Shown here piece by piece: positions 9,440 through 9,540 of a DNA stretch of 9,584 nucleotides; the first letter of the stretch is position 1; each line of letters starts with the position of its first letter. The DNA lies in UHGV virus genome UHGV-0197445. One strand, written 5' to 3'. The notes below the pieces were generated by a model that made no database searches, had not been told where the DNA came from, and saw nothing but the letters and a program-made list of their open reading frames with translations. The stretch comes from a virus. The position numbers and the translations under genes are program-made.

Positions 9440-9540
9440 GTCAATAGTCATTTGTGAGCAGATTGAATGGTCACAATGTAATATGCTCAGATCTGACAGT
9501 CAATACATTTGCAATGTTTAAATTGTCAGAAATGAGCATC
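9440..9540. promoter_or_regulatory. Operator-like repeats in the rep/repressor intergenic region
   Basis: Direct repeats GTCAATAGTCATTTG (9440-9454) and GTCAATACATTTG (9499-9511). Perfect 10-bp palindrome TCAGATCTGA (9487-9496). Inverted 7-mers ATGCTCA (9483-9489) / TGAGCAT (9533-9539). These overlap the candidate rep promoter. Confidence 0.3.
9475..9503 (-). promoter_or_regulatory. Candidate sigma70 promoter for the rep operon
   Basis: On the minus strand: TTGACT (9503-9498), a 17-bp spacer, then TACATT (9480-9475), about 60 nt upstream of the rep ATG. The spacer contains the 10-bp palindrome TCAGATCTGA (9487-9496). Confidence 0.35.

Follow-up and report, generated by a model that had tools for sequence, protein, structure and literature searches.

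Predicted repressor operators over the rep promoter in the probable immunity cassette of a CUS-1/YpfΦ filamentous phage

In the filamentous phage CTXφ, the repressor gene rstR lies divergent from the rolling-circle replication gene rstA, and the repressor acts at the intergenic region ig-2, which holds the replication promoter. Together, rstR and ig-2 make up an allele-specific cassette that is exchanged between phages whose replication genes are otherwise conserved. CTXφ is co-repressed by LexA. Its replication protein RstA nicks a different region, ig-1, which lies beyond rstR (PMC11509585). The lambdoid phages λ, 434 and P22 place three related pseudo-palindromes (OR1-3) for a Cro/CI-type helix-turn-helix (HTH) protein between divergent genes. 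In the Pseudomonas inovirus Pf4, the repressor C protein Pf4r is responsible for superinfection immunity and binds three motif sites in its own promoter region, which overlap direct and inverted repeats (PMC8402870). Here, we describe the 171-bp region between a replication gene (rep) and a divergent HTH gene in the viral genome UHGV-0197445, a stretch of 9,584 nucleotides (nt) to which we refer as the window.

We assign the window to the CUS-1/YpfΦ phages of the dif-integrated type, because it matches the prophages of Escherichia coli UTI89, avian pathogenic E. coli (APEC) and other strains at 99.3-99.8% nucleotide identity and because it shares a 100% identical Rep with Yersinia pestis YpfΦ. 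Phages of this group are linked to the virulence of pandemic Y. pestis and extra-intestinal E. coli. YpfΦ lysogens show partial immunity to superinfection, the YpfΦ gene YPO2273 sits in the rstR position and has been termed ‘homologous to RstR’ in a review, and the YpfΦ intergenic region is assumed to take part in transcription initiation (PMC4266046). Our literature search found no publication defining operators in this region.

We consider it likely (probability of roughly 0.8) that the 171 bp serve an inovirus immunity cassette as its operator-promoter region, with three predicted pseudo-dyad operators for the HTH repressor. This reading builds on a motif that is confined to the region and conserved in position, that covaries with the recognition helix of the HTH protein, and that is exchanged together with the cassette independently of Rep.

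One motif in three copies within the control region

A preliminary description of the window had reported several repeats upstream of rep and had read them as repressor operators overlapping the rep promoter. The 171 bp in question form the gap between rep and the HTH gene, and all of the reported elements are found at the positions given: two copies of a direct repeat (GTCAATAGTCATTTG, 9440-9454; GTCAATACATTTG, 9499-9511), a perfect 10-bp palindrome TCAGATCTGA (9487-9496), and the inverted arms ATGCTCA (9483-9489) and TGAGCAT (9533-9539). The palindrome had been placed within the spacer of the candidate rep promoter, and it does fall into the 17-nt spacer of a promoter-like site on the rep strand. 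To estimate chance levels, we generated 2,000 dinucleotide-preserving shuffles of the 171-bp region. A perfect palindrome of at least 10 bp occurred in 20% of them, 7-nt inverted-arm pairs within 60 nt at least as numerous as the two observed in 26%, and a 7+6 direct repeat in 3.5%; each of the three is weak evidence when taken singly. The significant features are two that the preliminary description did not state. The first is a 27-nt inverted repeat (9483-9509 and 9513-9539) with 21 of 27 positions complementary (78%), a value reached by none of the shuffles. The second is a gapped motif in three copies; three copies of any motif of the form 3+N4+6 appeared in 7 of the 2,000 shuffles (0.35%).

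Once aligned, the reported elements reduce to a single motif, TCA-N4-TGAGCA. On both strands of the 9,584 nt it has three matches, all within 9448-9538 of the 171-bp region, against an expectation of 0.10 for the window; none of 200 shuffles gave three. These 13-nt copies, designated O_A (9448-9460, plus strand), O_B (9484-9496, minus strand) and O_C (9526-9538, plus strand), contain dyad cores of the form (G/C)TCA-N4-TGA(G/C) centered at 9452.5, 9491.5 and 9530.5, with a spacing of 39 bp in both intervals. The predicted operator consensus is the pseudo-dyad (A)TG(C)TCA-N4-TGAGCAT. While the earlier elements are all real, their parsing thus changes: an operator of 13-18 bp is present three times, and the palindrome and the 7-nt arms each cover parts of these copies. 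ATGCTCA and TGAGCAT correspond to the strong half-sites in O_B and O_C. The two ‘direct repeat’ copies, although both present, differ in nature, since the first comprises flank and core of O_A and the second contains, on the opposite strand, the -35 hexamer of the predicted rep promoter (Table 1).

Table 1 Position and basis of the features in and around the divergent control region
Feature	Position	Strand	Basis and remarks
Divergent control region, non-coding half of the exchangeable immunity cassette	9414-9584 (171 bp)		Open reading frame (ORF) map; contiguity in UTI89; homology stop at 9413
rep, rolling-circle Rep (gene II/X family), predicted regulated target	8361-9413	minus	Pfam Phage_CRI E 1e-73, G2P_X_C E 4e-34
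HTH gene, 148-aa Cro/CI-type protein, YPO2273 homologue, presumed repressor	1-447	plus	Pfam HTH_3 E 1.6e-9, Phage_CI_repr E 4e-4
O_A (predicted), TGTCAATAGTCA-TTTG-TGAGCA	9439-9460	plus	Motif match; dyad core GTCATTTGTGAG at 9447-9458
O_B (predicted), TGTCA-GATC-TGAGCAT	9483-9498	minus	Core is palindrome TCAGATCTGA; 4-nt spacer GATC; in rep-promoter spacer
O_C (predicted), TGTCA-GAAA-TGAGCAT	9524-9539	plus	Center 54.5 bp upstream of HTH ATG
Predicted rep promoter	9475-9503	minus	Consensus scan: -35 TTGACT 9503-9498, 17-nt spacer, -10 TACATT 9480-9475, start ~9468
Candidate extended -10 of HTH gene, TG-T-TAAGAT (TGTTAAGAT)	9564-9572	plus	12 nt before ATG; predicted
Candidate plus-strand origin or terminator, outside the operator set	459-504	minus	Conserved hairpin and inverted repeat just past HTH stop codon

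We find it barely credible that the repeats arose by chance in an AT-rich intergenic region: the palindrome and the arms are indeed individually unremarkable, but all three motif copies are confined to this region, and the sites keep their positions among lineages whose HTH proteins are only 55-64% identical and whose flanks have diverged. The 27-nt arms, which exceed all shuffles, form a 57-nt near-palindrome that folds well as single-stranded DNA (ssDNA; z -4.2 on both strands), and could suggest a hairpin acting in the viral ssDNA as a minus-strand priming site or packaging signal. This possibility appears very remote to us, as the structure is not kept in the related locus L011, where only the operator cores are conserved, as its symmetry follows from O_B and O_C repeating one unit in opposite orientations, and as another element of the window (975-1028, see below) is the better candidate for such roles. 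A search against Rfam gave no family at the gathering threshold.

The three predicted operators differ in their conservation, which we followed in an alignment of six lineages and in immunity types A (that of the window) and A2, whose half-sites read TGAGCAT and TGTCCAT, respectively. O_A lies at about +10 to +21 from the predicted rep start, holds the first direct-repeat copy, and coincides with invariant columns 26-37 and 42-47; it is present in L011, L016, L020, L021 and L022. To its left, TGTCAAT(A/G)GTCA (window 9439-9450) is invariant in all type-A lineages. The control region of Y. pestis, which carries two full prophage copies 8.7 kb apart (L003/L004), differs from that of the window by one base, at 9453 in the O_A spacer (TTGTGA to TTATGA). 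The hexamer TTGACA on the rep strand at 9444-9439 was rejected as a rep -35 element, since this would put the -10 element at the rep start codon or within it. At the position of O_B, L011 carries the perfect 14-bp palindrome GGTCAGATCTGACC. O_C is kept at 51.5-54.5 bp from the HTH ATG in all type-A and type-A2 lineages (invariant columns 113-126), and L016, L020 and L021 have the perfect dyad ATGCTCA-N4-TGAGCAT in its place. We also considered the inverted repeat at 459-474 (IR2) as a fourth operator; it fits CTCA-N4-TGAG but tracks Rep rather than the HTH type, and was rejected.

An equivalent promoter-like site on the rep strand, likewise with a 17-nt spacer, occurs at the homologous place in L011, L012 and L005. 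A second such site in the window (TTAACA 9569/TAGATT 9542) has a -10 that is not kept in L011 and was treated as chance. On the other strand, a TAnnnT hexamer is found 9-12 nt before the HTH ATG in nine lineages (TATAAT in the Vibrio locus L024; invariant columns 154-159). No -35 partner was found for this candidate -10 element, and its position would imply a very short leader for the HTH gene. The spacer of the predicted rep promoter further contains AGATCT with a Dam GATC site (window 9489-9494; L011 1905-1910; L012, L005), which is common to immunity types A, A2 and B despite their differing operators; L014 retains GATC only, and the type C loci L007 and L008 lack the element. The spacer GATC may reflect methylation-sensitive control or residual ancestry.

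From this arrangement we propose a mechanism in which binding, repression, the promoter assignments and transcription starts, and the oligomeric state of the protein are all predictions. Dimers of the 148-aa HTH protein would bind O_A, O_B and O_C. O_B, centered at about -23 between the -35 and -10 elements, would occlude the rep promoter and block RNA polymerase, and O_A, centered at about +15 just past the start, would provide an additional block. Occupancy would switch off rep and the downstream genes, leaving a quiescent phage and superinfection immunity. O_C, at a fixed distance from the HTH gene and just upstream of where a -35 element would sit, would most likely serve autoregulation of the repressor gene.

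Inheritance of the sites with the regulator or with Rep

The preliminary description had proposed a comparison with related phages for immunity-specific divergence. This comparison revealed that the cassette differs by immunity type, independent of Rep. The relatives by Rep identity are L005 (Klebsiella) and L042 (IMG/VR) at 99%, L006 at 95%, and L007, L008 and L027 at 86-87%. All six have an unrelated intergenic region, adjoining either an HTH gene with just 39% identity or a gene for an unrelated 60-aa regulator. Nucleotide homology to the window in these cassette-swapped relatives stops at the rep ATG (9413) and restarts at about 457, ten bases after the HTH stop. With these two breakpoints, and with a 99%-identical Rep next to an unrelated cassette in L005 and L042, the locus exhibits the cassette exchange known from CTXφ. 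No 7-mer is common to all four intergenic types. In Klebsiella spallanzanii (L005), a second hairpin-cassette-rep junction at 3699-3731 and 4351-4574 indicates tandem or repeated prophage copies.

These relatives also bear on the alternative that the preliminary description had offered, namely that the repeats belong to the plus-strand origin or Rep nick site. On this view, the region would hold repeats bound by Rep together with a hairpin presenting the nick site, similar to the Ff intergenic region that precedes gene II. The region does lie directly upstream of a gene II-family rep, the 57-nt near-palindrome folds well as ssDNA, and the minus-strand sequence TTTTTCAATAGT loosely resembles, by eye only, the Ff nick sequence CTTTAATAGT. 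Because 99%-identical Rep proteins must share an origin, and yet L005 and L042 share no sequence with the window here, the origin is not expected within the 171 bp. Moreover, the motifs persist beside unrelated Rep families, and L011, the closest relative with this regulator type (HTH protein 85% and Rep 94% identical), does not retain the long hairpin (z -1.5 to -1.8, different fold). Alignment scores of the M13 origin core against the window stay within the range of shuffled cores, and it is the hairpin with inverted repeat at 459-504 that goes with the Rep type, in agreement with the CTXφ layout. The origin alternative is thus not supported, the sequence following the regulator and not Rep, and we reject it as highly improbable. 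The Ff-like nick candidate TTTTTCAATAGT itself (minus strand, 9560-9549) lies in a region that is not conserved with Rep and was rejected.

Starting from the HTH protein, the opposite pattern emerges. L016, L020 and L022 encode HTH proteins 55-57% identical to that of the window with the same recognition helix (ISVSTLVRI, as identified in a family alignment), while their Rep proteins are unrelated or 21-26% identical; the Aeromonas locus L020 has a Rep_trans-type Rep and an RstB homologue. All three retain TGTCAATnGTCA-N4-TGAGCAT (TGTCAAT(A/G)GTCA-N4-TGAGCAT) near the replication-gene side and (TG)CTCA-N4-TGAGCAT centered 51.5-54.5 bp upstream of the HTH ATG. In the six-lineage alignment, the invariant columns concentrate in these two sites and the -10-like hexamer, with the remainder diverged. 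The same operator motif occurs in Aeromonas and Photobacterium phages.

A natural variation of the recognition helix is found in L012-L015, the HTH proteins of which are 72-75% identical to that of the window but carry INVRTLVRI instead of ISVSTLVRI, corresponding to two substitutions. Their intergenic regions contain no TCA-N4-TGAGCA and instead carry GACA-N4-TGTC dyads centered 54.5 and 135.5 bp from the ATG, which are the positions of O_C and O_A. The half-site accordingly shifts from TGAGCAT in type A to TGTCCAT in type A2. In a Vibrio relative with a 47% identical HTH protein and the helix IGSRTLLRI, other dyads (GAGACA/TGTCTC) are found. Operators recognized by this helix would be expected to covary with it in this way.

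The same observations weigh on the possibility that the motifs are sites for host factors (RovA/SlyA, or Dam/SeqA at the spacer GATC) instead of the phage HTH protein. RovA is reported to bind the putative YPO2274 promoter region and to repress YPO2274-2279 (PMC4266046), GATC/AGATCT is shared by the rep-promoter spacers of three immunity types with differing operators, and the flank TGTCAATAG is conserved beyond the recognition-helix type. Host-factor sites, however, would not shift from TCA-N4-TGAGCA to GACA-N4-TGTC with two helix substitutions within enterobacterial hosts, would not be swapped wholesale together with the regulator gene, and would not be expected to persist in Aeromonas and Photobacterium phages as this motif does. 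As an explanation of the motifs we find host factors improbable, although for part of the sequence such sites can coexist with phage operators.

Since the cassette is swapped under a 99%-identical Rep, the motif is kept with the HTH helix, and operator and helix covary, we conclude that the sites follow the repressor and not Rep. The proposal of operators overlapping the rep promoter thereby gains support from inheritance of the motif with the HTH gene, from the helix covariation and from wholesale replacement of the region beneath a nearly unchanged Rep, all of which are comparisons between sequences.

Several points count against repressor operators as the explanation. The promoters rest on consensus matches only. 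O_B is found in the window and L011 lineages only and is absent from more distant type-A lineages, and the operator halves are unequal, TGAGCAT being invariant and its partner often just GTCA. The invariant TGTCAATAG flank of O_A is nearly conserved in the Vibrio relative despite its other helix and dyads, and may be the site of another factor. A plasmid homologue with identical helix (L018) has no TCA-N4-TGAGCA in its 5.4-kb locus. Furthermore, the 2014 review treats a regulatory role of YPO2273 as awaiting experimental demonstration, and the reported binding of RovA to the YPO2274 promoter region in Y. pestis means that host regulators also act here (PMC4266046).

Two of the loci just named merit further description. 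The version of the O_A left flank in Vibrio L024 (1357-1369) reads CTGTCAAGTGTCA. The plasmid homologue is encoded at 2501-2869 of L018/L019, which derive from ~41-kb E. coli and Salmonella plasmid contigs; the protein (P0066) is 63% identical to the HTH protein of the window and occurs on 872 contigs, where its gene lies downstream of a resolvase gene and which also encode TrbL.

Phage genome, origin candidate and other elements

The window represents a circularly permuted filamentous-phage genome and is the same element as a circular 9,565-bp E. coli record. Its end and position 1 are contiguous in E. coli UTI89, where the prophage adjoins hipBA and where rep and the HTH gene are adjacent and divergent with 171 bp between them. 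Besides Rep, the minus-strand genes encode a G5P-like ssDNA-binding protein, ORFs of coat-protein size, a 570-aa ORF, Zot/pI and a secretin. The YpfΦ virion packages the positive strand (PMC4266046), and the viral (positive) strand of the phage corresponds to the minus strand of the window. In every inovirus locus examined, the HTH gene is divergent from a replication gene. HTH_3 was the only domain found in the HTH protein and a LexA-like cleavage domain was not detected, while a sequence search of the PDB gave marginal matches only. HTH gene and intergenic region are at least 99% identical across 99 E. coli genomes, so that variation among these is uninformative.

Just past the HTH stop codon, the element at 459-504 consists of an inverted repeat (459-474, GTCTCA-GGAA-TGAGAC) followed by a hairpin (476-504, AACGTGCAGT-loop-ACTGCACGTT), the loop of which reads GTTGGTAAT on the minus strand. 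Across four immunity types, it is present in every locus with a YpfΦ-type Rep (window, L002-L008, L012-L015, L021, L027, L042 and L048), and all loci that lack such a Rep (L016, L020, L022 and 22 other inovirus contigs) are devoid of it. A compensatory GTACCA..TGGTAC version is found in L007 and L008, and the element folds as ssDNA with z -7.5. These properties make 459-504 a better candidate for the plus-strand origin than the 171-bp region; a bidirectional terminator is equally possible. Likeness to the Ff origin is architectural only, with a TAAT-loop hairpin followed by a short inverted repeat. The plus-strand sequence CACGTTCTTTATTGTG (499-514) was rejected as an Ff-like nick site. It resembles CACGTTCTTTAATAGTG, including a short flanking stem, but lies on the non-viral strand, and Y. 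pestis reads CACGTTCTGGATTGTG (CTGGA) there although its Rep is 100% identical; CACGTTCTTTATTGTG is probably the T-tract of the HTH gene terminator. In a prophage remnant of Photorhabdus tasmaniensis (L010, ~2850-3000), homology to the conserved hairpin stops after GAACGTGCAG, within the left arm. Past this break, a type-A2-like control region is directly joined, without an HTH gene, and is followed by a truncated 109-aa rep.

Two further elements were noted. For the 54 nt at 975-1028, identity amounts to 98% with part of the If1 ‘major intergenic region’ and to 95.6% with Alteromonas phage phiAFP1. Exact copies of a 25-mer from this element, GTTCGGGTGTCACAGAACCCCGAAC, occur in 25 IMG/VR contigs of inovirus size; of these contigs, 22 lack a YpfΦ-type Rep. 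The ssDNA fold of the element has a z of just -1.2. The element is Rep-independent and a candidate for the minus-strand origin or packaging signal. At 2196-2289, two inverted dif-like sites (plus strand, GATGCGCACAA-TGACG-TTATGCTAAAG; minus strand, GGTGCGCATAA-TGTACGACACG-TTATGTTGAAAT) flank a GC-rich hairpin (2222-2254), which looks like a folded attP of the CTXφ type for XerCD integration at dif; the window contains no site within 3 mismatches of E. coli dif. About 400 enterobacterial plasmids, mostly conjugative, match short pieces of a 963-nt dif-region query at ~80-95% identity, mostly in its first 100-280 nt (~window 2198-2475).

Implications and comparison with described systems

The analysis yields base-level operator predictions and a predicted rep promoter for the YpfΦ/CUS-1 phages. 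It points to a natural swap of specificity, in which ISVS would pair with TGAGCA and INVR with TGTCCA, and defines heteroimmune types within the phage group, a matter relevant to the coexistence and superinfection of these prophages. For the replication origin, it directs the search to 459-504.

Beyond a simple switch, the cassette could combine Dam-state control at the GATC of O_B with the properties of a portable, reprogrammable immunity module, an idea that we consider speculative and rather unlikely. A fresh replicative form would be un- or hemimethylated and the prophage fully methylated, which could alter promoter activity or repressor binding. If so, the Dam state would couple rep expression to replication or infection, one HTH family with fixed-position operators would have moved between gene II-type and Rep_trans-type modules, and two recognition-helix residues would retune the specificity of the portable module.

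The locus resembles rstR/ig-2/rstA of CTXφ in its repressor gene divergent from a rolling-circle rep, in the predicted action of the repressor at the intergenic region holding the rep promoter, and in the exchange of repressor gene and intergenic region as one allele-specific cassette. The layout is similar as well: the order in the window is the candidate origin (459-504), HTH gene, 171 bp and rep, and in CTXφ the origin is located beyond the repressor gene, in ig-1. In contrast to CTXφ, the window Rep belongs to the gene II/X family (Phage_CRI), whereas the CTX-like Aeromonas relative L020 has a Rep of the Rep_trans type. With the HTH protein as tblastn query, no CTXφ match was obtained at E<=1e-3 among 50,697 phage records, a collection that may not include CTXφ. 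The predicted operators of the window, unlike those of CTXφ, are short pseudo-dyads of the λ/434 kind, and its control region lacks a LexA box better than two mismatches to CTGT-N8-ACAG. Genome-wide, matches to this pattern number 47 against 34 expected, a count reached by 3 of 200 shuffles.

As in OR1-3 of λ, 434 and P22, three related pseudo-palindromes for a Cro/CI-type HTH protein lie between divergent genes, with one predicted site over the core promoter of the replication or lytic gene and one beside the repressor's own -35-poor promoter with its very short leader. Unlike the lambdoid operators, the sites of the window are not adjacent but spaced 39 bp from center to center, and one is located downstream of the predicted transcription start. 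No Cro-like second regulator was identified in the window, which moreover represents an ssDNA filamentous phage integrated by XerCD. Pf4r, the inovirus repressor with three sites of its own, differs in being P2 C-like, in its non-palindromic direct repeats, in its protein family and in its neighboring gene. In summary, the arrangement repeats a pattern established for CTXφ and the lambdoid phages, and is useful and testable rather than surprising.

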